Translations under genes and position numbers: made by a program | Notes under the pieces: generated by a model | The model's input: only the letters and a program-made list of their open reading frames with translations | What the model was told of the DNA's origin: nothing | Database searches by the model: none | Shown here: piece by piece, positions 10,249 through 50,172 of the stretch | Layout: every line of letters starts with the position of its first letter | How positions within the stretch are numbered: position 1 is the first letter of the stretch | Assembly (NCBI GenBank): GCA_021780375.1 | Contig: JAJXYT010000111.1 | Location: forward strand, 10,809-74,808 | Origin: a bacterium | GTDB taxonomy: Bacteria > Verrucomicrobiota > Verrucomicrobiia > Limisphaerales > UBA11358 | Direction: 5' to 3' | DNA: 64,000 bases

Positions 10249-11775
10249 ATGAAGCGAATATACTCATTCATTATCCTCCTGCTGTTATCTCGCAGCGCGG
10301 TTTTCGCCCAGCTCGACCCCGGCAATCCGTTGTCCGGCCTCGAAAAACTCAAAGATTTCAAAACCATGCGCGCGTCGTCCACCGATCCCGACTGGCGCAA
10401 TGGCAACGGCGATTGCCGGTGGATCCGGGCGGGCGGCAGCCTGACCCTGGCGGAACTCAAAGGCCCCGGCGAAATCGTCCATTTCTGGTGCACCATCGCC
10501 GACCAGGAGCCGAATTACTCCCGGTTGCTCACCTTGCGCATTTATTGGGACGGCGAAACCAATGCCAGTGTCGAATGTCCGATTGGCGATTTCTTTGGCA
10601 TAGGCATGGGGGTTGACAAACCGTTCACCTCGCTGCCCGTCCGCGTGAGTTCCGACGGCCGTGGTCGCAATTGCTATTGGCCGATGCCGTTCCGAAAATC
10701 GGCCCGGATTGTCGTGACCAATGACGGCAAGAAACCATGCGACGCCTTTTACTACTACATCGACTGGCAGAAATTGAAGTCCTTGCCGGATGACAGCGCC
10801 TACTTCCACGCGATGTACCGGCAGGAGTTTCCGTGCGTGATGGGCCGGAATTATTTGATTGCGGATATCACGGGCCGCGGACAGTACGTCGGTACCGTAT
10901 TGAGCGTTTATCTGACTTCTCCGGGCTGGTTTGGCGAGGGAAACGATTACTTTTTTATCGACGGCGAAAAAGAGCCGAGTTTGCGCGGGACGGGAACGGA
11001 AGACTATTTTTGCGATGGCTGGGGTTTTCGTGAGCAGTCCGGCCCGTTCTATGGCACACCGCTTTGGGAAGGTTATGACACCGGTGATCGAGGCAGTGCT
11101 TATCGCTGGCATATTCCCGACCCGGTCACTTTCAAGAAATCGCTGCGTGTGGAAATCCAGCATCGAGGCTACCAGAAATTTCCTGACGGCAAGGAAACCG
11201 GTTACATCGAGCGCGATGATCTGATGTCCAGCGTGGCCTTCTGGTATCAAATCGGGCCGCACAAACCTTATCCGCCGTTGCCGCCCGGGCCGGAGCGATT
11301 GCCGTTCCGTGACCGGATTTTACTTAAAGGCTATGCGGCCGTGGCCACGGCGAAACATTCCGATGACCCGATGGAAGTGCAGCCTTTGGATGGCGTCACC
11401 GACGGCAAACAACTCTGGTTTCATCCCCACAATGACAAGGGGTGGGTGGAAGTCTCGTTCGAGAGTCCCACCAATCAAAGCATCGAATTGACCGCCAAAA
11501 TGGTGCATTCCTACGACTATGGGATTTATCGTGTGCTGCTCGACGGTGAACCGATTGCGGTCCTGGACCTTTACAACCCGGATATTGTTCCCACCGCGGA
11601 AAAACTGGGGATGCAGAAGCTGGCGGCGGGAACCCATACTCTGCGGTTCGAATGCGTGGGGAAGTCGCCCAAGTCAGCGGGATATTTTCTGGGGTTTGAT
11701 GCGTTGGTGGAGCGGATCCCGGCGTACTTCAGACCTCCAAGCGTTGACTTGCGTACGCTGCAAAAGCACAAGTGA
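10249..11775 (+). CDS. DUF2961 / GH172 family glycoside hydrolase with C-terminal CBM-like extension
   Basis: Signal peptide. Motifs DFFGIG, NCYWPMPF, FYYYIDWQ and RGTGTEDYFCDGW are typical of DUF2961. There are ~150 extra C-terminal residues. Confidence 0.8.
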   Translation: MKRIYSFIILLLLSRSAVFAQLDPGNPLSGLEKLKDFKTMRASSTDPDWRNGNGDCRWIRAGGSLTLAELKGPGEIVHFWCTIADQEPNYSRLLTLRIYWDGETNASVECPIGDFFGIGMGVDKPFTSLPVRVSSDGRGRNCYWPMPFRKSARIVVTNDGKKPCDAFYYYIDWQKLKSLPDDSAYFHAMYRQEFPCVMGRNYLIADITGRGQYVGTVLSVYLTSPGWFGEGNDYFFIDGEKEPSLRGTGTEDYFCDGWGFREQSGPFYGTPLWEGYDTGDRGSAYRWHIPDPVTFKKSLRVEIQHRGYQKFPDGKETGYIERDDLMSSVAFWYQIGPHKPYPPLPPGPERLPFRDRILLKGYAAVATAKHSDDPMEVQPLDGVTDGKQLWFHPHNDKGWVEVSFESPTNQSIELTAKMVHSYDYGIYRVLLDGEPIAVLDLYNPDIVPTAEKLGMQKLAAGTHTLRFECVGKSPKSAGYFLGFDALVERIPAYFRPPSVDLRTLQKHK

Positions 11776-32431: not shown

Positions 32432-32575
32432 GCGACCAGACTATCTCTTTGTGAGCCAGGCTGTGAATTGAAAAACTTTGGCCGGACATTGTTTGTACTG
32501 ATGGAACCGTCGGCCGGATGAAGCCCGGCAAAAATGGAAATTTGGGGTGTCCTGATTTGCCGGGAGCGCGGATCG

Positions 32576-37968: not shown

Positions 37969-38125
37969 AATGAGTTGTCATTTTCTGCGGCAGACTTTTG
38001 TTGTCATCGGCGTCGGCACTGTCGCCTGTCGCCACCGATGATTACAACGGTTCTGTTTTACCACCCGGTGCGGGCGGATGTTAATCAAAAAAACTGAAAC
38101 CAACATTGAATAAATCGTTGCCAGC

Positions 38126-40277: not shown

Positions 40278-41777
40278 CTACGCCGCGAGCTTTCGTTCCG
40301 GCCGTACCGCGTCCAGCCTCCGCTGTGCGGCGACGGAGGACGGGTGCCGGCCAAAATTCGGCGATGTTTTCAACATGCGTTTGAATTCTGCGCGGCGTTC
40401 GTGCGTTTCCTCCGCGGAGTAAAGCTGCTTCACCAGTTTCAGAAACCCGCTCTGCAATCCGGCAACGCTCATCTTTTTCGGCTGGAAATTGATATCGAAC
40501 AAAGTGCAAAGCTCCCATGCGTTGTCGCGGAGGATGCGGCCTTCCTTTCTCAGCCGCGCATAAAGCGGGGTGCCCGGAAACGCGGTTTGGAACGTCACCT
40601 GCACTTCGTAAAGTCCGGAGTCGCGCACGAAATCCAGCACGTCGTCGAAAGTTTCCGGTGTGTCACCGTCGAGGCCGAGGATAAAACAGCCGTTGACGGT
40701 GATGCCGTAAGACTGGATTTTGGCGATGGCTGTTTTGTAATGTTCCTGCTGGCGAGCCTTCCAGTTGTGTTTGAGTTCGATACCGTTGAGATTGGCACGG
40801 CGCGGGCTTTCCAGGCCGATGAGCACCTGCTGGCAGCCGGAATCGCGCATCAGACCGAGCAATTCGTCGTCCTCCGCCACGCTAATGTCGGCTTCGGTGA
40901 ACCAGCGGACATTTTCCTCCGCCAGTTCGCGGAGCAGTTTTTTGTAATGCGCGTGATGGACAAAGCTGTTGTCGTCGGCAAACTCGATGAACGGCTGGGA
41001 CCAGATTTTTTTAATCTCGCGGATTTCGGCGATGGCTTTTTCCACCGGCTTCACCTTGTAACGCGGCGTCAGCAGAATGGAACTCGCGCAGAACTCGCAG
41101 CGGTGCGGGCAGCCGCGGCTCGTTTGCACGGTCAGGCGGTTGTATTTTTGCGGCGCCAGCAAATCAAAGCGCGGCATCGGCGCGTCGGCCAGGTCAAATT
41201 CCTTCTTCGGCGTGTAAAACGGTTTCAAATCGCCGCGCTCGAAATCCGCGAGTACTTCCGGCCAGAGCAATTCACCTTCGCCGATGACAACGCTGGTGCA
41301 GTGCTCCTTGGCCTGCTCGCGCAACGACGACACCGTGATGCCACCCATGATGACGGGAATTCCTCGCGTTTGGTAAAAATCCGCAACGTCGCACGCCTCG
41401 TAAAATTGCGCCGTGAAGGTGCTGAGGGCGACGAGGTCAAAGTCGGTCGGCAGATCCAGCCTGAAGGTAGCGCGGCCGTCCCCGGCTGCGGGTGGAGGCG
41501 GCGTCTCGCCGCCATTGCCGTTGCCGGGCGGGTCGCCCGGCGAACCCGCAGGCGGGACGCCTGCGCTACGGCGCCAATCAGCGATTTCGTGGTAGGCGAT
41601 TTCAAATCTGTCCGGCGTCAAGCCGGCGAGGGTGAGCAGGCCGAGGCTGGGCAGGGAAGCGATGATTTTATTGCGGTCCACGAAGCCGGGCAGGGTGAGG
41701 CCGAGCCGGGTGAGTTCCTCGTTATGGGCGCGGACGCCGCTCATGGCGATGAAAGCGATGTGTTTTTTTGTATTCAT
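40278..41777 (-). CDS. B12-binding-domain radical SAM protein
   Basis: Start at MNTKKHIAFIAMSG, with an ATGA overlap with the upstream gene. The CX3CX2C motif is SRGCPHRCEFCAS. The N-terminal cobalamin-binding-like domain is interrupted by the low-complexity stretch PPAGSPGDPPGNGNGGETPPPPAAGDG. The ORF-track extension to 42125 overlaps the upstream gene. Confidence 0.8.
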   Translation of the reverse strand: MNTKKHIAFIAMSGVRAHNEELTRLGLTLPGFVDRNKIIASLPSLGLLTLAGLTPDRFEIAYHEIADWRRSAGVPPAGSPGDPPGNGNGGETPPPPAAGDGRATFRLDLPTDFDLVALSTFTAQFYEACDVADFYQTRGIPVIMGGITVSSLREQAKEHCTSVVIGEGELLWPEVLADFERGDLKPFYTPKKEFDLADAPMPRFDLLAPQKYNRLTVQTSRGCPHRCEFCASSILLTPRYKVKPVEKAIAEIREIKKIWSQPFIEFADDNSFVHHAHYKKLLRELAEENVRWFTEADISVAEDDELLGLMRDSGCQQVLIGLESPRRANLNGIELKHNWKARQQEHYKTAIAKIQSYGITVNGCFILGLDGDTPETFDDVLDFVRDSGLYEVQVTFQTAFPGTPLYARLRKEGRILRDNAWELCTLFDINFQPKKMSVAGLQSGFLKLVKQLYSAEETHERRAEFKRMLKTSPNFGRHPSSVAAQRRLDAVRPERKLAA

Positions 41778-42160
41778 AGTTTTGTTACCTCCCATAAAGT
41801 CAAAATCCCGCCGGTGATGAGGCTCACCACGGGCACGGCAAAAATCAGGTGTGCCCTCGGAAAATGCGCCATGACGATGCAGCAAACCGGCGTGGTGATG
41901 GCACCAATGATGAAAGCCCATGACGCGATTTCTACGTGTAATTCCGCCGGAGAAATTGTTTGCAGTGTCAGCCAGAACAGCAGATTCACCGCGCCGAGGC
42001 CGAAGCAGGAAATGTGGCCGAGCCGGTACATCCGGCGTTTGAAGCTGCCATAACCGCCCAGCCAGTTTTCGTGGTGGAAGAACAAGCCCAGCACCAGGCC
42101 GGTCCCCAATCCGAGCAAAATCCACAGCCAGGCGAGGAAAAGATTTGGATTAGATTTCAT
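41774..42160 (-). CDS. small integral membrane protein (4 TM), hypothetical
   Basis: MKSNPNLFLAWLWILLGLGTGLVLGLFF... Hydrophobic throughout. Translationally coupled to the radical SAM gene. Confidence 0.65.
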   Translation of the reverse strand: MKSNPNLFLAWLWILLGLGTGLVLGLFFHHENWLGGYGSFKRRMYRLGHISCFGLGAVNLLFWLTLQTISPAELHVEIASWAFIIGAITTPVCCIVMAHFPRAHLIFAVPVVSLITGGILTLWEVTKL

Positions 42161-42196
42161 TTGAGTGTTTCTGATTGCCTGTTACAAACTTATGGG

Positions 42197-42607
42197 ATGA
42201 AACCCGCCAAAGAAAAGTATTATCGGGGTCTCTTCACCATCGCCGCCTTTTACGACCTGCTGCTCGGCGTCACGTTCACCTTCTTCCCGGCGCGGGCCTT
42301 TGCCGCGCTGGGCATCAGCGAAAAGCTGCCGGCGTTCGGCGGCTATGTCACGCTGCTGGGCGCCTTCCTGCTGGTAATTGGCATCGCCTACGCGTTGATT
42401 TCGCGCGGCCATCTGCGGTGCAACGGGGATTTGATCCTCGTGGGCACGCTTTACAAACTGGCCTATTCGGCGACGGCTTTTTATTACTGGGCGGCGGGTA
42501 CGCTGCCGCACGTCGCGTTCGGCGCGCTGTTCGGCGTGGCCGATGCAGTCTTTTTCGTCCTGATGGCCGAGTGCTGGCTCTGCCTCAAGCGGGAAACCAG
42601 AACCTGA
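42197..42607 (+). CDS. small integral membrane protein, hypothetical
   Basis: Internal ATG of ORF 41960..42607: MKPAKEKYYRGLFTIAAFYDLLLGVTFTFF... Four hydrophobic segments. Confidence 0.6.
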   Translation: MKPAKEKYYRGLFTIAAFYDLLLGVTFTFFPARAFAALGISEKLPAFGGYVTLLGAFLLVIGIAYALISRGHLRCNGDLILVGTLYKLAYSATAFYYWAAGTLPHVAFGALFGVADAVFFVLMAECWLCLKRETRT

Positions 42608-42639
42608 ATTGAAATTGGTTTTCATTTTGAAAACGAGGT

Positions 42640-43230
42640 TCAATAAATGATTTGGAACAGCTTGAACGCCAACCAGCCGAGCAATGCACCGGCGGGCAGG
42701 TCCACGACATAATGTTGTTTGGTGAACAGGCAGCTCAATGCGATCAGCAGCGGAAACGCGACCATCACGGGACCGAAGGACGGATACAGATGCAGTGCGG
42801 TCAGCGTGGCCACCGAAGTATGCATGCTGGGGAAGCTGTTTGAGCGCCCGTCAAAACTTTGAACGAAGGCGAGAAACCGTTCCGACTGTCCCCGGCCCGA
42901 GACAGCGGCACGCCATTCCGCCGGGGTTGTGACCGGAAGAAAGATGAAGAAAGCCATTTGAAATCCAAGCAGCAGCATGTAGCTGATGGCCACGTAGAGA
43001 AATTGGCGCGGTGAGGTGACGGTCCAATTGATGGCGACGATGACAGGGTAATAGAGGAAGCTGTAAATCCACACCCAGCGCGGGCGATACGGGATGCGGT
43101 CGTCAATCGGCAGCCGGAATTCGCGCGGCGACGTCACGTAGTTCCGCTGGCACCAGAAATAAAACTGGTAAACGCCCACGATGAGAAACGCGCTGACCAC
43201 GAGTTGGACGAGACGGTCAATCGGTTGCAT
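42640..43230 (-). CDS. PAP2-superfamily membrane protein lacking the C1 motif (sphingomyelin/IPC-synthase-like phosphotransferase type)
   Basis: C2 motif FPSMHTS and C3 motif HYVVDLPAG are present. There is no KxxxxxxRP motif. About 6 TM segments. Confidence 0.7.
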   Translation of the reverse strand: MQPIDRLVQLVVSAFLIVGVYQFYFWCQRNYVTSPREFRLPIDDRIPYRPRWVWIYSFLYYPVIVAINWTVTSPRQFLYVAISYMLLLGFQMAFFIFLPVTTPAEWRAAVSGRGQSERFLAFVQSFDGRSNSFPSMHTSVATLTALHLYPSFGPVMVAFPLLIALSCLFTKQHYVVDLPAGALLGWLAFKLFQIIY

Positions 43231-43303
43231 GGCTAATGGCGGTTAAGGGCTTGGTCATCCGGACTGTTCCTGCCACACTTATACCGCGGCTGGCGGGCGG
43301 CGG

Positions 43304-43342
43304 GTTAAATGATAAAACATTTGCAACATCGGCTGGATCAAT
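43304..43342. promoter_or_regulatory. conserved intergenic element, copy A
   Basis: GTTAAATGATAAAAC-atttgca-ACATCGGCTGGATCAAT. It lies 74-112 nt upstream of the PAP2 gene start. Confidence 0.6.
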
Positions 43343-43380
43343 CGCTAACTTCATTGGGAATTGCCCTTTTGGCTTCATGG

Positions 43381-44115
43381 TTAAAACTTGAAGGTCAAGG
43401 CCATCAGGACCGAGTGCGTCATGGTCCCGTCTGATTCGAATTCAGTCGGGTTGCCATTAGAATCGAAGCCTGGTCCGACGTCGTGGTCGGTCGTGCCGAG
43501 GAACTTGTAGGCAACGCCAATATCCCACCGGTCGTTGATCGCGTATTTGATGCCCGCCAGGCCCTGGAAGCCAAACGTCGTATCGCTCGCAGTCGTTCCG
43601 CCGAATTCGTTGCTATAATCGCTGAAGACTCCGCCGATACCGCCGCCGACATAAGCCGAGAAATGGCGGCCCAGCGGTTGTGTATAGATCACGTTGACCA
43701 TGATGGGAAGCTCGACCCAATCGACTTCCATGAAATCGGTTCCGAGGAAGAACGAGTTTTTGACCTGATTGACGATGAGGCCGATTTCCAGTTCGGCAGC
43801 CCAATTTTTAGTGAAGTTGTATCCGAAATCGAAATCCAGTCTTGCCCCGGGATCAAACGTCACCTTCTCGCTGTCGCCAATGGGGTCGCTCATGGTGATG
43901 TCCTGTTGCCAGGCAGGACCGAGGTCGAAGCTCAGATACACTTTGCCGCTCAGCGGCGTTGCATAATAACGGCCCGGCATTGTGCCGGTTGGCGCGCCGG
44001 AGTACGGCGTATCGTAGTAGGCGGGCCAGTACGGTTGCGCCTGAAGGCATGATGCGGAGTTTGCCAGGGCAAGTCCGGCAACCCCGGCGAGGATTTTAAT
44101 TCGGATTGTTTTCAT
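43381..44115 (-). CDS. outer-membrane beta-barrel protein (OmpA-N/OmpW-like small barrel)
   Basis: Signal peptide, alternating-hydrophobic strands, Gly/aromatic-rich sequence, and terminal ...ALTFKF. Confidence 0.75.
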   Translation of the reverse strand: MKTIRIKILAGVAGLALANSASCLQAQPYWPAYYDTPYSGAPTGTMPGRYYATPLSGKVYLSFDLGPAWQQDITMSDPIGDSEKVTFDPGARLDFDFGYNFTKNWAAELEIGLIVNQVKNSFFLGTDFMEVDWVELPIMVNVIYTQPLGRHFSAYVGGGIGGVFSDYSNEFGGTTASDTTFGFQGLAGIKYAINDRWDIGVAYKFLGTTDHDVGPGFDSNGNPTEFESDGTMTHSVLMALTFKF

Positions 44116-44206
44116 AGGTTCAGCGGTTTGAGTTTTCGGTTATGGTTATGGTTTTGTCCGACATTGGTGTTTCTGCCTGTCTTGTAACTCCATTGGCCAT
44201 GCAGGT

Positions 44207-44246
44207 GTTAATTGATAAAACTTCGGCGAACATCGGCTGGCTCAAT
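44207..44246. promoter_or_regulatory. conserved intergenic element, copy B
   Basis: GTTAATTGATAAAAC-ttcggcga-ACATCGGCTGGCTCAAT. It lies 92-131 nt upstream of the OMP gene start. Confidence 0.6.
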
Positions 44247-44280
44247 GAGCGGTCTCTCCCTCGGATTTTCAGCGCGTTCG

Positions 44281-45129
44281 TCATGGCAAAGCGCCTCCCA
44301 AACCGGCCAGGCCGCGGAGCCTGCGGCGCAACCACAGCCGGGTGAAACGGACGGTCAGCAGAAGTTTGTCGCTCCGACGGCGGGTATGAAATTTCCTGGC
44401 TGGCGATTCGCAGGCGGACAGCGCAATGACTTCCTCCCGGGCCACCGCCGCAATCCGGCGCCAGCCGGCGGCGTGATTGGCGACGGTTTCAAAAGTCATC
44501 GGTGCTCCGATTTGCAGAACGATTTTTCGGGGGCGCACTGCGCGGGCCTCGGGCGGCATCGCGGCAAAACTACCCGACAGACGGCATGGCAAGACCGGGA
44601 TGGCGGTTCCGGCAACGAGCGTGGCAAAGCCCGACTTGAACTCGTGCAGTTGGCCGTCCCGGCTGCGGCTGCCTTCGGGAAACACAATATAAATGGCCTG
44701 CTGATTGATCAGCCGCCCGCGCAAATCGCCGAGTTCATGACGCTGGCCGCCACGGCGGTTGCGCCAGACAGGCAGCGCATTGAGAATCACCGCCGAGAAA
44801 CCGGCGAGCGGCGGCGTGGCAAAAAAATAGTCGCCGGCGGCCAGTGGCGAAACCTGGTCGCGCCAGCGCGCCGAAAGCGCCGAGGCCAGCACGACCGTGT
44901 CCAAGTGGCTGGAATGATTGGCCACGATGACGAATGGCGGTTGCGCGGGCAGATTTTCCAGGCCGCAAATTTCCAGGCGGTTCCAGCATTTAAGAATGGT
45001 CCGCACCGTCATCAGCCAGCCCAGGCGCAGCACGTTGGAAGTCAAATCCGATTCACGGAGCGGACTGCAATGGCGTTCTTTGGTTTGCAGTCCCAGGTCG
45101 CGCGCCGAAAGGTATCGCCAGTCGTTCAC
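44281..45129 (-). CDS. lysophospholipid acyltransferase (PlsC/LPLAT family)
   Basis: HX4D motif VANHSSHLDT and the FPEGSRSRDG block. Confidence 0.8.
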   Translation of the reverse strand: MNDWRYLSARDLGLQTKERHCSPLRESDLTSNVLRLGWLMTVRTILKCWNRLEICGLENLPAQPPFVIVANHSSHLDTVVLASALSARWRDQVSPLAAGDYFFATPPLAGFSAVILNALPVWRNRRGGQRHELGDLRGRLINQQAIYIVFPEGSRSRDGQLHEFKSGFATLVAGTAIPVLPCRLSGSFAAMPPEARAVRPRKIVLQIGAPMTFETVANHAAGWRRIAAVAREEVIALSACESPARKFHTRRRSDKLLLTVRFTRLWLRRRLRGLAGLGGALP

Positions 45130-45131
45130 GA

Positions 45132-46139
45132 TCAGCCTCCGGTGAGGATCCGCATTGGCTGGTTTTGGCCCAGCGGACCCAGTTCATACGACAGAAAATG
45201 ATAAACGGCCGGGGGAACCAGCACGAGGCTGTCAAAACGGTCCAGCCAGCCGCCGTGTCCGGCGATGCAGACGCCAAGGTCTTTTACGCCGAGGTCGCGT
45301 TTGATAGCGGACAGAATCAGGTCGCCGAGCTGGCCGAGCAGGCTGATGAGCAAGCCGAGCTTCAGCAACGAGAAGTCATTGCCCATCGCCGTTCCGGCAA
45401 AAATACTTTTCCCCATCCCTGTTACCAGTGCCGTGGTCAGAACCAGCGCGCCGAGGGAGCCGGCAACGGTTTTGCCGGGACTGATGTTCGACAATAATTT
45501 GCGGCCGCCGAAAATTTTTCCGACGCAATAGGCGAAAATGTCGTTCAATTCCACGCTCAACAGCACGAGGATGAGCAGGGGACGGTAGTGCGAATCGTTG
45601 GCCATCAAGCCGAGATAGCCGATGGAATAGCCGAAGAGCAAAAAGCCCAGGATGCCGAGCGAGACACGCTGGAGGTAGCCTTGGGGGCGGTTTTCCGGCA
45701 GCGTGACCATGGCGATGACGCCGCTGGTCAGCGCGGCCAGTGAAAAATACATCCGGTCGTAGTGGTCCACGTTGGCGATCCCTAGCGCGAAGATGCCGAC
45801 CAGGACGACGGCGACGATCGGGAATTCGCGGAACAGTCCGGTGGCGCGGGCGAATTCCTGGAAGCAAAACCAACTCAACACCGCCACCGCGATCATGACC
45901 CAGGCCGCGCCCAGCAGAATCGGGCCAACCATTGCCGCGGTCAGCCACAACCAGGATTTCCAGCGCCGCCAGAGTTCTTCGTGTAACTGTGGTGAAATGA
46001 CGTTGAGCCTCGACAGCGCGTGAATCACCAGCGGCGCGAGGGCGAGCGCCGCGAGAATGCCCGTGACCGCGCAGACGGTGACCGGATGGTCAAAGGCGGT
46101 ACGCCAGCCAAACAAATGTTGCCAGGCCGTGGAGTTCAT
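45132..46139 (-). CDS. cdsA: phosphatidate cytidylyltransferase
   Basis: Polytopic membrane protein with C-terminal signature SAIKRDLGVKDLGVCIAGHGGWLDRFDSL. Confidence 0.85.
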   Translation of the reverse strand: MNSTAWQHLFGWRTAFDHPVTVCAVTGILAALALAPLVIHALSRLNVISPQLHEELWRRWKSWLWLTAAMVGPILLGAAWVMIAVAVLSWFCFQEFARATGLFREFPIVAVVLVGIFALGIANVDHYDRMYFSLAALTSGVIAMVTLPENRPQGYLQRVSLGILGFLLFGYSIGYLGLMANDSHYRPLLILVLLSVELNDIFAYCVGKIFGGRKLLSNISPGKTVAGSLGALVLTTALVTGMGKSIFAGTAMGNDFSLLKLGLLISLLGQLGDLILSAIKRDLGVKDLGVCIAGHGGWLDRFDSLVLVPPAVYHFLSYELGPLGQNQPMRILTGG

Positions 46140-46840
46140 TTTTTGATCGGGTAGGATTGGGAGACTTCACCGGCGATTCGTTTTAGCCGGCGGAACACGG
46201 TAACGATCCCGCCTGACACGATGGCGGCCAGTCCGAACGACATCAGACCGAAAGGGTTATTTCCAATTTGCACGAGCGGCTGCCAGCCGGCCGGCGTCAA
46301 CCCGCAATACAGCGAGATGAGCAGAATTACCACCATGCGCCCCGGCTTGGCCATCGGGCCGCAGTAATGTTGCATTGCACCGGTGACTTTGCCTTCGGCG
46401 CGGACGTAAGCGACGAACACGGCCGTGAGCGCCGCGCTGAATCCGAGCGCCGGGTTTCCGCCGGCGGCGTATCCTGCGCCCACCAGAACCGCCATGTCGG
46501 CCAAGCGGTCCGGGATTTCGTTGAATAACTCGCCGAACGGCGAGGCTTTTCCACTGCCCACCGCGACCATGCCGTCGAGGAGATTTCCCATGCCGCGCAC
46601 CACGATCCCGGCGACGGCAAGGAGGAACAGGAGTTGGGGCAGCGCCAGCCGTTGTGTCGCGGCAAGCGCCAGTCCGGCCCCGATGCCGCCAGCCATGCCC
46701 GCCAGCGAAATAACGTTCGGCGATACCTTTCGGGCGATGAGCCAGCGGGCGAATTGTCGGGAAATGTTCCAGTCGCGTGTGAACATCGGACGGCGTTCCG
46801 GCGCAACGATGGGCGTTGAGATGATTTGGTTTGTTTTCAT
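46136..46840 (-). CDS. CDP-alcohol phosphatidyltransferase family protein
   Basis: Start at MKTNQIIS, with an ATGA overlap with the upstream gene. The motif DG(x)2A(x)8G(x)3D(x)3D appears as LDGMVAVGSGKASPFGELFNEIPDRLAD. Confidence 0.8.
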   Translation of the reverse strand: MKTNQIISTPIVAPERRPMFTRDWNISRQFARWLIARKVSPNVISLAGMAGGIGAGLALAATQRLALPQLLFLLAVAGIVVRGMGNLLDGMVAVGSGKASPFGELFNEIPDRLADMAVLVGAGYAAGGNPALGFSAALTAVFVAYVRAEGKVTGAMQHYCGPMAKPGRMVVILLISLYCGLTPAGWQPLVQIGNNPFGLMSFGLAAIVSGGIVTVFRRLKRIAGEVSQSYPIKK

Positions 46841-47190
46841 GATGTTCTCCCCAGCAAATACATGCCGCCGATGAGCAATGCCATGCCGGCGACGTTGGCA
46901 GCGGAAATTATCCGGCCATACAACACGTGTTCGATGAGCGCGGCCCAGATGAATGTCGTGGCATACAGCGGATAGAGCGCACTGGGCGAAGCCTTCTGCT
47001 TGAACGCGGCCACGAACAGCACCATCACCGCAACGTAACAACACGCGCCCACCAGAATCCGGCTGTTCAATAAATAACTTTGGAGGGTCCCGCGCGTCCG
47101 GTCGGCGCCGGCCTTGTAAAAGAATTGTCCGACCGCTCCCAGCACCGAAGCGAACAGGAAGCAGAGAATGGCCAGCGGCGTGGTTTTCAT
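46837..47190 (-). CDS. small DMT-superfamily (EamA/ArnE-like) membrane protein
   Basis: MKTTPLAILCFLFASVLGAVGQFFYK..., about 4 TM segments. ATG 47190 is preceded by GAGG. The track starts at GTG 47199. Confidence 0.65.
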   Translation of the reverse strand: MKTTPLAILCFLFASVLGAVGQFFYKAGADRTRGTLQSYLLNSRILVGACCYVAVMVLFVAAFKQKASPSALYPLYATTFIWAALIEHVLYGRIISAANVAGMALLIGGMYLLGRTS

Positions 47191-47225
47191 TTGCCTCACA
47201 CTTTAAGCGCGCTTGCCTTGCGGGC

Positions 47226-47265
47226 GTTAATTGATAAAACTGGCGGCATCATCGCTACAACCAAT
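47226..47265. promoter_or_regulatory. conserved intergenic element, copy C (fills the divergent LysR / lipid-operon spacer)
   Basis: GTTAATTGATAAAAC-tggcgg-CATCATCGCTACAACCAAT. The final AT.. runs into the LysR ATG at 47264. Confidence 0.6.
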
Positions 47266-48157
47266 GAACATCCATCACTTGGAGTTGTTCTATTACGTCG
47301 CCCGTCATGGCGGCATCATGCCGGCGGTGCACAACATCCCCTACGGCATCCAGCAACCCGCGGTCAGTTCCCAGATTGCCCAACTTGAGGAATTTCTCGG
47401 CGCGACGTTGTTTCAGCGCCGGCCGTTTGCGCTGACGCCGGCGGGCCAGGCGCTGTACGATTACGTCAAGCCGTTTTTTGACAACCTGGATCCGGTGGCC
47501 GAGAAAATCCGCGGCGGCGTTTCCCAGCACCTGCGCATCGCCGCGTCCGAAACAGTGCTGCGGGAACATCTGCCGGTGATGCTGCAGGAGCTGCGGCGGC
47601 CGTTTCCGAAGTTGAAGGTGACGTTGCGCGAAGGTTATCATCCGGAGGTTGTCACCTGGCTGCAACAACGGGAAATTGACGTGTCTCTCGGACTGGTTGG
47701 CAACAAGCCGCCCCCGGGCGTGAACGCCTTGCCCTTGTTCAAACTGCCGCTGGTATTGCTCGTCCCGAAAACGAGCAAGCTGAAATCCGCCCAGGAACTC
47801 TGGGAACGCGATCCGATCGGGGAATCACTCATCACGGTGCCGAGCAACGAATTTATCAGCCGTGCGTTCCAGGCGGGGTTGGCGAAACTCGGGGTGGACT
47901 GGTTCAGCCGGATTGAGGTCAATTCCGTCGAAATTGTGCAAACGTATGTTGCCAACGGCTACGGCATTGGCGTGACCGTGGGCGTGCCGAAGATGAAGAT
48001 CCACCCGCAGGTGCGGGTGCTGCCGCTCGAAGGGTTCGAGCCGGTCAAATTTGGCGTCCTCTGGCAGGGCGGAAAAAATCCCCTGCTCGAGGCCTTTCTC
48101 AAAATTGTCCAGGCCACCGCGCGCCGGTTGCTGGCCGGAGAAAACCTGGACTTGTGA
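47264..48157 (+). CDS. LysR-family transcriptional regulator
   Basis: MNIHHLELFYYVARHGGIMPAVHNIPYGIQQPAVSSQIAQLEEFLG (LysR HTH) plus a substrate-binding domain. The first ATG in the frame was used. Confidence 0.85.
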   Translation: MNIHHLELFYYVARHGGIMPAVHNIPYGIQQPAVSSQIAQLEEFLGATLFQRRPFALTPAGQALYDYVKPFFDNLDPVAEKIRGGVSQHLRIAASETVLREHLPVMLQELRRPFPKLKVTLREGYHPEVVTWLQQREIDVSLGLVGNKPPPGVNALPLFKLPLVLLVPKTSKLKSAQELWERDPIGESLITVPSNEFISRAFQAGLAKLGVDWFSRIEVNSVEIVQTYVANGYGIGVTVGVPKMKIHPQVRVLPLEGFEPVKFGVLWQGGKNPLLEAFLKIVQATARRLLAGENLDL

Positions 48158-48444
48158 TTCTCCAGGCGCGGAGTCTCTCCCGGAATCTGGTCGCCGCGGG
48201 AATTTTTTACATTGGTGTGATTCCCGGGGGCGATTTTACCCGAATTTGTTTCGCGCCGACAATCGGTAATGGGCCATGGACGGCCATTTCCGAGACAGCG
48301 CGCCTTGGGTCGGGACAAATCCATGCTGAATTAAAGTGATTTCCCCCCGCATTGGAATCTGGCGCGGCGATTGCTAAAGTTGCGAAGAATCTGTTGGAAA
48401 GCTGCGTGCAACCAGGTAATTAAAACTGAACGATTAAGCAACCA

Positions 48445-49524
48445 ATGCAAATGGGTTTGCCATTTCTGAACGGTGTCGCGGGAAAAAGCCGGAACCAAAT
48501 GATCTCGGTTGATCTGGGGAGCCGCACGACGAAGGCCGTGCTTTTGGAGCGGCGGGGAGAGGGTTTTGCCCTGACTCGTTATGCGTTGCTGGACGCCCCG
48601 ATTTTCGAAAAAATCCTTTCGCCGGAATTGCTGGCGGAACATCTGAAAACCATTTGTGAAACATTGGAAGCCAGAGCCAAGTTGGTGACCTTGTCCATTG
48701 GCGTAAATGACGCCATGGTGCGAACGGTGGAACTGCCACTCATACCCGTGGACGAGATGCGCCTGGTGTTGAAAAACAACACCCGCGGTTATCTACAACA
48801 GGATTTGCCCAATCGCGTTTTCGACTGCCATATTATTCCGATCAAACCGCTGCCCAAACCTGCCGACGCCGGCAAAACCCCGTCGCTCTCCAAAGTGAAA
48901 GTATTGGTGGCGGCTGCCGGAAAGCAGTTGATCGGCGATTTCCAAAGCGCGGTCGGGGAGGCGGGGCTTGTGGCGGACCACATCGTGCCCGGTCTGATTG
49001 GTCCGGTGAATGCTTTTGAGATGGCCATGCCCGAAGCGTTCGCCAGCGACTCCGTTGCGCTGGTGGATATCGGATTCAAACACTCCTCGATCGCCCTCCT
49101 GCATCAAGGTGAACTGGCATTAAGCCGGGTGGTGGGGATCGGCGGCGACAAATTGACAGCCGGTTTGGCGGAGGCGATGAATATCAGTTACGCCGAGGCG
49201 GAGGGGATTAAAATAGGCATGGCTCCGGAAATTCAGTCCACCCTGGAAACGCAAGTATTGCCGCTCGGCCGCGAATTGCGGGCGTCCCTTGACTTTTTTG
49301 AACATCAACAGGACCGGCCGGTCTCGCATGTTTATGTCAGCGGTGGTTCCGCCCGGTCGGAACTCATCCTGCAAATGCTGCACAGCGAGTTGATCGCAGA
49401 ATGCAAGGCCTGGAATCCGACGACCTTCCTTCAACTGGCATTGCCGGAACAGCAGACGGCCGAGCTTGAACACGTCGCGCCGCAACTCACGGTAGCCATC
49501 GGTGCTGCGATGGCCGCCTTTTAA
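48445..49524 (+). CDS. pilM: type IV pilus assembly protein PilM
   Basis: Actin-like ATPase fold blocks ISVDLGSRTTKAV, VDIGFKHSS and YVSGGSA. Followed by pilNOPQ-like genes. Confidence 0.85.
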   Translation: MQMGLPFLNGVAGKSRNQMISVDLGSRTTKAVLLERRGEGFALTRYALLDAPIFEKILSPELLAEHLKTICETLEARAKLVTLSIGVNDAMVRTVELPLIPVDEMRLVLKNNTRGYLQQDLPNRVFDCHIIPIKPLPKPADAGKTPSLSKVKVLVAAAGKQLIGDFQSAVGEAGLVADHIVPGLIGPVNAFEMAMPEAFASDSVALVDIGFKHSSIALLHQGELALSRVVGIGGDKLTAGLAEAMNISYAEAEGIKIGMAPEIQSTLETQVLPLGRELRASLDFFEHQQDRPVSHVYVSGGSARSELILQMLHSELIAECKAWNPTTFLQLALPEQQTAELEHVAPQLTVAIGAAMAAF

Positions 49525-49527
49525 GTT

Positions 49528-50172
49528 ATGCCGATACGCCTCAATCTGCTGGCCGAAGCCCAAGCCGCCGAAGAATTACGGCGCCGGGACCCGATCAAGC
49601 GCGTGATCTTCGGCGGGGTGCTGGTCGTGGTATTGATGTTGGTGTGGTGGAGTTGGCTCCAACTGCGGGTCATCGTCGCCAACGCGAGCCTGTCCCAGAC
49701 CAAAGCCCAGATCGAATCACACACCAATGCCTATCAAGTTGTATTGGTCGGTGAAAAAAAGATCACGGAGGCGAAGGAAAATCTGGCAGCCCTGCAAAAA
49801 TTAACCAATAACCGTTTCCTGCAAGGCAACCTGTTGAATGCCTTGCAGGAGGCCACCGTGCCCGGCGTACAGCTGGTCAGGTTGCGGGTGAACCAGGCGT
49901 ATCAGGCCAATCAAGGAACCGGGGTTCAGACCAACGCCACGATTACGGAAAAAATTGTCCTGTCACTGGATGCGGAGGACTTCAGTAGCAACCCGGGTGA
50001 TCAGGTAAACAAATTTAAAGATGCCATCAGTGACGAGCCCTACTTCCAAACCAAACTGGGCAGCGCGAATGCTGTTCGTCTGACGAACCTGTCGGCGCCC
50101 CAGGTTGATCCGAGTGGCAAAGCGTCGGTCTTGTTCAGTTTGCAGTGCGCTTATCCCGATCACACCCGATGA
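49528..50172 (+). CDS. pilN: PilN-like pilus assembly protein
   Basis: MPIRLNLLAE..., a single TM segment, a coiled-coil region, and its position after pilM. Confidence 0.75.
   Translation: MPIRLNLLAEAQAAEELRRRDPIKRVIFGGVLVVVLMLVWWSWLQLRVIVANASLSQTKAQIESHTNAYQVVLVGEKKITEAKENLAALQKLTNNRFLQGNLLNALQEATVPGVQLVRLRVNQAYQANQGTGVQTNATITEKIVLSLDAEDFSSNPGDQVNKFKDAISDEPYFQTKLGSANAVRLTNLSAPQVDPSGKASVLFSLQCAYPDHTR

Follow-up and report, generated by a model that had tools for sequence, protein, structure and literature searches.

The stretch of DNA analyzed here (the window; 64,000 nt) spans positions 10809 to 74808 of contig C119 (GenBank JAJXYT010000111.1) in a 4.0-Mb assembly of 210 contigs from an uncultured member of the Verrucomicrobiota (order Limisphaerales). 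It contains a gene predicted to encode a LysR-family transcriptional regulator, termed lysR here, which is divergent from an ATG at 47190 over a 73-nt spacer. To the left of this spacer lie three minus-strand units, which are a four-gene unit with open reading frames (ORFs) annotated as encoding a small membrane protein and three phospholipid enzymes, a gene for an outer-membrane beta-barrel protein (OMP), and a gene for a PAP2-family lipid phosphatase (Table 1; gene identities from Pfam and NCBIfam). One copy of an element of about 40 bp stands before each of them (copies C, B, and A, respectively). The element is probably a LysR operator-promoter module that was copied before the three membrane-lipid and envelope units.

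A repeated element before three minus-strand units

All three copies contain the 15-mer GTTAA(A/T)TGATAAAAC (box 1) with 0 mismatches to this degenerate pattern, and GTTAAWTGATAAAAC together with a second box was found at 43304, 44207, and 47226, on the plus strand each time. The second block (box 2) reads ATCGGCTGG(A/C)TCAAT in copies A and B and ATCGCTACAACCAAT in copy C and is separated from the 15-mer by 9 nt in copy A and by 10 nt in copies B and C. Across 100 dinucleotide-preserving shuffles of the window, the 15-mer occurred on average 0.09 times, and no shuffle reached 3 matches. These results bear out the same-orientation repeat described in a first-pass annotation of the window. They also agree with its placement of every copy upstream of a minus-strand ATG (PAP2, 43230; OMP, 44115; small ArnE/EamA-like gene, 47190) and of copy C in the 73-nt spacer, where the copy ends on the first two bases (A and T) of the LysR ATG (47264). 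The annotation had further described about 45 nt of similarity between copies A and C beyond the element, which held only weakly: a 16-nt block (CACACTT..A..CGCG) is similar in the two copies with a 1-nt offset and corresponds to the predicted minus-strand -10 region (see below), and ungapped identity over the longer stretch was 14/45.

A common dispersed repeat had been named beforehand as a finding that would count against a regulatory element. The genome-wide search instead returned 3 exact copies in the whole assembly, all in this cluster, with no excess elsewhere, and 7 matches at two mismatches, equal to the reversed-pattern control (also 7). The element is therefore not a common dispersed repeat. 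A position weight matrix (PWM) that was built from the copies of relatives only, with the reversed genome as the control, scored copy B at 61.8 bits and copy C at 52.6 bits (reversed-genome maximum, 2.5 bits), and copy A scored 49.0 bits in a separate model for 9-nt spacers (reversed-genome maximum, 6.6 bits). A REP- or MITE-like origin was rejected, as only 3 strong copies were found, in one cluster, and the five to six weaker PWM matches mostly precede gene starts.

Conservation of the element and its link to LysR

Related loci were obtained by scanning the LysR protein against species-representative genomes, from which 80 loci (L numbers below) were fetched. Nearly all are labelled Verrucomicrobiota, Limisphaerales, or Pedosphaera, with LysR identities from 96% to 54%. 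A typically verrucomicrobial locus was also seen on contigs titled as unrelated taxa (L017, L022, L025, L028, L029, L007, L011, L039, and others), including Bifidobacteriaceae, Acidiferrales, Sulfopaludibacter, Haliangiales, and Limnocylindrales, which suggests mis-binned or mislabelled metagenome-assembled genomes (MAGs). The window and 35 of the related loci supplied 49 distinct copies for the element alignment, 29 of them adjacent to lysR and 20 elsewhere; the copies of L024, L025, and L056, which an automatic split had put among the non-adjacent ones, were counted as lysR adjacent (all keep the CTTGC motif described below).

The 49 copies have a fixed form, with box 1 as GTT-N9-AAC, a 10-base spacer, and box 2 as ATCG-N7-CAAT. 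Box 2 varies as AT(C/T)G-N7-CAAT and is a perfect palindrome (ATTG-N7-CAAT) in L009, L015, and L035. The spacing between the boxes is 10 nt in 47 of the 49 copies and 9 nt in the other two, copy A included, and a T-N11-A dyad is present in both boxes. Read on the minus strand, the order is box 2 (ATTG-N7-CGAT), a 10-bp spacer, box 1 (GTTTTATCAATTAAC), 18 bp, and a -10 box. The element was found within about 130 nt upstream of lysR in about 34 of the 80 loci, invariably in the orientation of lysR, and the 15-mer starts 38 to 42 nt before the LysR ATG in most of these (about 29). This position upstream of lysR holds down to 54 to 58% LysR identity (L049, L061, L071, and L080).

That the minus-strand transcripts contain the element as a structured cis-regulatory RNA (leader or riboswitch) is extremely improbable. 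The ATTGA at one end can pair with the TCAAT at the other, and in two or three loci the two sides have changed in concert (for example, L045 and L059, with ATCGAT in each half), but this putative pair is broken in at least 5 loci, and RNAalifold returned 0 consensus pairs in the 49 copies. A comparison of positions 42000 to 48500 with Rfam gave no match on the element at E <= 1, and a cis-regulatory RNA family was rejected on these two results. Furthermore, start codons at the predicted +1 (see below) put the element upstream of the RNA, and a transcript containing copy C would need to start inside the lysR coding region.

Among 41 related genomes, a LysR orthologue (E <= 1e-30) was found in 26 and the 15-mer (<=1 mismatch) in 21; both were present in 20 genomes, LysR only in 6, the motif only in 1, and neither in 14. 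The motif thus occurred in 20/26 genomes with the orthologue versus 1/15 without it, and in the lone motif-only genome it had one mismatch and the control also gave matches. In at least 13 of the 41 genomes, the motif lay 23 to 42 nt from the LysR match. In the genome of the window, this LysR is single copy at E <= 1e-30. Across the 80 homologues, residues 1 to 60 (the DNA-binding winged-helix domain) hardly vary, whereas the remainder of the protein falls to 54% identity; the near-invariance of this putative recognition domain matches that of box 1. A difference in the domain between loci with and without an adjacent element was considered and rejected, as the domain is invariant throughout, consistent with one specificity. 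Co-occurrence, adjacency, and domain invariance together indicate that the neighboring LysR (47264-48157) is most likely the binder of the element. The closest solved structures to this protein are those of CbbR (5y2v, E = 2e-16) and CatM. No NCBIfam model reached its cutoff for it, and assignment to a named subfamily was rejected because no curated equivalog cutoff was reached.

A rather unlikely alternative is that a transcription factor other than LysR, with its gene elsewhere, binds the same operator-promoter module, with LysR as a frequent target or a bystander. No copy of the element adjoins lysR in 46 of the 80 loci, as such a factor would allow, and copy A contains AATGATAA, which resembles the core of a Fur box. 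However, the motif is nearly confined to orthologue-bearing genomes, its distance to the LysR ATG is fixed over deep divergence, and its T-N11-A dyads and -65/-40 geometry are as expected for a LysR-type regulator. The approximately 3 to 9 sites found per genome are also too few for a global factor such as Fur.

Predicted promoters on both strands

A G-n-T-A box lies 18 nt to the left of box 1, with G in 46 of the 49 copies and T and A, at alignment columns 67 and 68, each in 48, and the sequence between this box and box 1 is otherwise variable. The box reads as the -10 of a putative minus-strand promoter (G-14, T-12, and A-11), for which the predicted +1 was set 7 nt after the -10 hexamer. 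No conserved -35 hexamer for this promoter was found in the 49 copies. More than 20 copies have a downstream start codon at a distance of 32 to 36 nt from box 1, corresponding to +1 to +4 of the predicted transcript. These start codons belong to unrelated genes, including those for a small membrane protein, three lipoprotein families, a 128-aa membrane protein, a CarF-like desaturase, a GNAT-aminotransferase fusion, and an LplT-Aas fusion. Their positions provide independent support for the predicted +1, and the distances fit leaderless mRNAs. The mRNA from copy C, with a predicted start 3 nt before the ATG, would accordingly be nearly leaderless.

Relative to the predicted +1, box 1 spans -47 to -33 (center, -40) and box 2 spans -72 to -58 (center, -65). 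In the canonical LysR-type layout, a T-N11-A dyad near -65 overlaps the divergent promoter of the regulator and a second site reaches -35 (PMC4834489); the predicted centers of the two boxes match the geometry given there. The locus thus combines divergent adjacency, T-N11-A dyads, predicted sites at -65 and reaching -35, and overlap with a predicted lysR promoter, as in LysR-type operators. Together with the fixed distance to lysR and the co-occurrence over 41 genomes, the boxes at the predicted -65 and -40 support the proposal of the first-pass annotation that copy C is a LysR site and that the three units form one LysR regulon.

The predicted lysR promoter is located on the plus strand and extends into box 1 of copy C. 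CTTGCC lies 8 nt left of box 1 and 16 to 17 nt upstream of TAAAAC, itself preceded by TG-n. CTTGC is kept in 28 of the 29 lysR-adjacent copies versus 0 of the 20 non-adjacent copies, and both boxes are kept throughout. CTTGC was also found before lysR in loci that contain no element (L037, L043, and L052), where it is paired with other -10-like hexamers (TAGAGT in L037 and GATAAT in L043). These observations bear on the alternative that the 15-mer is merely an extended -10 of a plus-strand promoter, with copy C driving lysR and copies A and B producing antisense transcripts into the OMP and PlsC genes. TGATAAAAC does fit TGnTAnnnT except for the final base, the -35 of copy C is conserved, and extended -10 promoters are able to function without a -35. 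All 20 non-lysR copies have lost the -35, yet the two boxes, the 10 nt between them, and the minus-strand -10 persist; box 2 would be purposeless transcribed DNA, and every copy distant from lysR stands at a fixed distance before a gene on the opposite strand. As a full account of the element, this alternative is quite improbable. Because the non-lysR copies drop the -35 yet keep the boxes, the spacing, and the predicted minus-strand -10, the putative extended -10 role is not the reason for conservation of the element. The plus-strand proposal, which the first-pass annotation had itself raised, therefore holds for copy C and is not supported for copies A and B. Although an extended -10 could still be active by itself, putative antisense promoters at copies A and B are not under selection. 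The putative operator and the predicted lysR promoter overlap, and hence both readings of copy C are compatible. A scan with the sigma-70 consensus returned no promoter at the copies, which is uninformative, as neither predicted promoter follows the E. coli consensus.

In the mechanism proposed for the LysR operator-promoter module, the target promoter would have no -35 of its own, and box 1 would cover the place of the -35. A tetramer of the adjacent LysR would bind both boxes and, on sensing a signal, would recruit RNA polymerase, leading to transcription of the left-hand gene. Many target mRNAs would be leaderless, with the gene start at or no more than 3 nt from the predicted +1. As the predicted lysR promoter lies inside box 1 on the other strand, bound LysR would also repress its own gene. 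In this genome, the regulon would consist of the four-gene unit of copy C, the OMP gene, and the PAP2 gene.

The sequences themselves show the architecture of the element, its conservation, its specificity within the genome, and its co-occurrence with lysR. That LysR binds the element, that it activates the targets instead of repressing them, and where transcription starts are predictions from sequence, and several points weigh against them. All positions relative to +1 depend on the predicted -10, and activation was preferred to repression solely from the geometry and the absent -35. The better-conserved box 1 is centered at -40, whereas the textbook high-affinity site is the -65 box. The Fisher P value for the association of motif and LysR (1.4e-5) is overstated because the genomes are related, and six orthologue-bearing genomes yielded no 15-mer at <=1 mismatch. 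The 46 loci without a lysR-adjacent copy count here as well, as do the 9-nt spacer of copy A, in place of 10 nt, and the deviation of copy C from the G-14 consensus.

Gene cassettes, regulon members, and related systems

In distant relatives, the order is simple, lysR-[element]-128-aa protein-radical SAM, with the pair of genes for the 128-aa membrane protein and a B12-radical SAM enzyme directly adjoining the element and lysR; this pair is probably the ancestral target. In the clade with LysR proteins 89 to 96% identical, the content between the lysR and radical SAM genes varies by species. The window has the order lysR-[C]-operon-[B]-OMP-[A]-PAP2. With [M] denoting a copy of the element, the other orders found were lysR-[M]-OMP-[M]-operon-[M] (L004 and L005), lysR-[M]-OMP-[M]-PAP2 (L001 and L010), lysR-[M]-OMP-[M] (L003), lysR-[M]-OMP-[M]-lipoprotein (L007 and L008), and lysR-[M]-lipoprotein (L006, L009, and L014). 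The cassettes seen were OMP, the four-gene phospholipid operon, PAP2, and two lipoprotein families.

The two halves of the element have different associations. The spacer and box 2 travel with the right-hand neighbor, with the type TGGCGGCAnC-ATCGCTAAAACCAAT found only next to lysR, and the 18-bp spacer and -10 travel with the left-hand gene. Copy B is still similar to the OMP copies that adjoin lysR in L003 and L008, but its lysR -35 has decayed (GGCCAA for GGCAAG). Because the halves track their own neighbors and copy B retains a decayed -35, the breakpoints lie inside the element, and the permutation presumably reflects homologous exchange at the operator. As a tentative extension, the 40-bp operator may double as a homology handle by which promoter-equipped cassettes are inserted, lost, and permuted beside lysR. 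If so, the regulon would be assembled and re-assorted as a cassette array without a dedicated recombinase, and each incoming gene would automatically come under LysR control. Homologous exchange is not needed for the conclusion that the element is probably a LysR operator-promoter module.

The same permutation raises the alternative that the element is primarily a recombination site for cassettes, integron-like or for homologous exchange, rather than a regulatory site. Differences in cassette content and order among relatives with 89 to 96% LysR identity, the bounding of each cassette by the element, and the breakpoints inside it would all fit such a site. Several observations make it very improbable, however. 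No recombinase was found among the genes identified at 40278-50172, where Pfam searches of ten ORFs recovered lipid enzymes, OMP, LysR, and PilM and two ORFs matched no family. Distant relatives keep a single copy between lysR and one target, with nothing to shuffle, and a constant spacing to a -10 and start codons is characteristic of promoters. Like an integron cassette array, the locus has one-orientation cassettes beside a divergent gene, each bounded by a repeated site, and varies in content and order between close relatives. In contrast to an integron, the divergent gene encodes a transcription factor rather than an integrase, the repeated site carries a predicted promoter, so that each cassette would be expressed on its own, and the element has no conserved stem and forms no hairpin of the attC type. 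An integron-like system was rejected on the absence of a recombinase domain in the ten ORFs and of a conserved stem in the element.

Six weaker PWM sites in the genome exceeded the controls (Table 1), two of them in the window as weak candidate fourth and fifth copies. A G-n-T-A box is present at the right distance in 5 of the 6, although these columns are not part of the PWM. The weaker modules probably stand before LplT-Aas, EEP-family, DUF7670, lipoprotein, and DUF2339 genes, and of these, DUF7670 and DUF2339 carry the element in other species. In those species, full elements away from lysR precede DUF7670, DUF2339-family, and lipoprotein-family genes, the pair for the 128-aa protein and the B12-radical SAM enzyme, CarF-like desaturases (PF10520), and OlsB-like N-acyltransferases (PF13444). 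Copies far from lysR stay with their target genes, such as the 128-aa protein and radical SAM pair or the CarF-like desaturase. In the distant relative L032 (5174-8943), genes for the CDP-alcohol transferase, CdsA, and PlsC are located directly downstream of lysR on the same strand, and no element was detected; this arrangement is a second, independent kind of linkage of lipid genes to LysR. Taken together, the predicted regulon appears to concern membrane lipids and the envelope and to be conserved across an order of Verrucomicrobiota.

Several gene models at the locus were revised. The listed ORF for the CDP-alcohol phosphatidyltransferase overlaps the 117-aa gene by about 200 nt, its first approximately 90 residues are junk-like, and the Pfam match begins at residue 108; the true start is probably near 46760-46800. 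A Twister-sister ribozyme match inside this gene (46416-46513, minus strand), the one sub-threshold Rfam match in the region searched, reached 26.1 bits against a gathering threshold of 34 (E = 0.022) and is most likely due to chance. The predicted OMP leader (44116-44174, minus strand) contains a 14-codon upstream ORF (MSDKTITITENSNR), which may encode a leader peptide or provide an alternative start. In L007 and L008, the OMP N terminus carries a similar peptide, SDK(T/M)(I/M)NI(T/N)K, as an in-frame fusion, and the leader DNA GTTTTGTC(C/T)GACA is kept across relatives.

Beyond PAP2, a 153-aa ORF on the minus strand (42182-42643; p153) was rejected as a regulon member, as the substitution pattern indicated a false ORF. 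Substitutions relative to 13 relatives (477/199/103) peak on the third codon positions of the plus-strand frame 42197-42607. The product of this frame is a multi-pass membrane protein of 136 aa (MKPAKEKYY...), and the gene is convergent with PAP2. A copy A transcript continuing beyond PAP2 would be antisense to this gene. Further left, a separate gene for the 128-aa membrane protein (...HREDWLGGYAS...) stands before the B12-radical SAM gene, and the listed 615-aa radical SAM ORF is therefore over-extended at its 5' end.

Table 1. Features of the lysR locus and candidate copies of the element elsewhere in the assembly. Positions are those of the window unless a contig is given; strands for copies of the element are those of the genes that they precede.
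Feature	Position	Strand	Details
LysR-family regulator	47264-48157	+	297 aa; Pfam HTH_1, LysR_substrate
Predicted lysR promoter	47212-47240	+	-35 CTTGCC 47212-47217; extended -10 TGATAAAAC 47232-47240 inside box 1; predicted start ~47247
Copy C	47226-47265	-	Box 1 47226-47240 (GTTAATTGATAAAAC); box 2 47251-47265 (ATCGCTACAACCAAT); spacer between lysR and small gene
Predicted -10 of copy C	47200-47205	-	TAAAGT; predicted start ~47193; 3 nt before ATG 47190
Copy B	44207-44246	-	Box 1 44207-44221; box 2 44232-44246; between PlsC stop 44281 and OMP start 44115
Predicted -10 of copy B	44181-44186	-	TACAAG; predicted start ~44174; predicted 59-nt leader to OMP ATG
Copy A	43304-43342	-	Box 1 43304-43318; box 2 43328-43342; between OMP stop 43381 and PAP2 start 43230
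Predicted -10 of copy A	43278-43283	-	TATAAG; predicted start ~43271; predicted 41-nt leader to PAP2 ATG
Copy C unit	44281-47190	-	Four genes (next four rows)
Small ArnE/EamA-like membrane protein	46837-47190	-	117 aa; Pfam/NCBIfam
CDP-alcohol phosphatidyltransferase	46136-47044	-	Listed ORF 302 aa, over-extended at 5' end
CdsA	45132-46139	-	Pfam/NCBIfam
PlsC-type acyltransferase	44281-45129	-	Pfam/NCBIfam
Copy B unit: OMP	43381-44115	-	Pfam
Copy A unit: PAP2-family lipid phosphatase	42640-43230	-	Pfam
Multi-pass membrane protein	42197-42607	+	136 aa
Membrane protein	41774-42160	-	128 aa
B12-radical SAM protein	40278-42125	-	Listed ORF 615 aa
Weak candidate fifth copy	38080-38119	-	21.1 bits; before exo/endo/phosphatase (EEP)-family gene, ATG 37968; GGTAAAAC box at expected distance
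Weak candidate fourth copy	32463-32502	-	25.4 bits; before MFS(LplT)-acyltransferase-AMP-ligase(Aas) fusion gene; GATAGT box at expected distance; GTG start 32431, 32 nt from box 1
Weak site	C172:2124-2163		23.9 bits; before DUF7670 gene
Weak site	C172:8302-8341		14.8 bits; before lipoprotein gene
Weak site	C134:1419-1457		12.4 bits; before DUF2339 protein gene
Weak site	C90:5443		12.8 bits; probably false

The element resembles the divergent control regions of BenM/CatM, CbbR, and ThnR, in which a regulator gene is likewise divergent from its target. Shared features are two T-N11-A boxes of about 15 bp, 25 bp apart (at the predicted -65 and -40 here), a target promoter without a recognizable -35, and a predicted lysR promoter inside the operator, which would fit autorepression. 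In contrast to those systems, the promoter-proximal box is the more strongly conserved one here, many targets are apparently leaderless, the targets are lipid and envelope genes, the host is a member of the Verrucomicrobiota, and the LysR protein falls below the NCBIfam equivalog cutoffs.

The nod boxes of rhizobia, elements of about 47 bp that are bound by the LysR-type protein NodD and repeated before several nod operons, provide a second comparison. Both are long, conserved composite operators placed before several operons in the same orientation relative to the operon, with one copy between the regulator gene and a divergent target, and in both the copies together define a regulon. The sequences are unrelated (ATC-N9-GAT in nod boxes versus GTT-N9-AAC and ATTG-N7-CGAT here), phylum and function differ, and the copies described here bound cassettes that vary in order and presence between species.

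A literature search found no account of a LysR regulator for such lipid genes in Verrucomicrobia, nor any publication on how transcription of these genes is controlled in the Limisphaerales/Pedosphaera-like group. The regulon is of a classical type newly seen in uncultured Verrucomicrobiota, the genomes used being MAGs of uncultured organisms. The analysis provides a precise putative operator, predicted promoters, and a candidate regulon list for Limisphaerales/Pedosphaera-like Verrucomicrobiota, which are abundant in soil and freshwater. The list would tie genes of unknown role (the B12-radical SAM enzyme and its 128-aa membrane partner, DUF7670, DUF2339, and several lipoproteins) to lipid enzymes (CdsA, PlsC, CDP-alcohol transferase, PAP2, LplT-Aas, CarF-like desaturase, and OlsB-like acyltransferases). 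Guilt by association would suggest that all genes of the regulon act in membrane-lipid remodelling, and the apparent leaderless starts and the cassette permutation may serve as leads for promoter biology and regulon evolution in the phylum.

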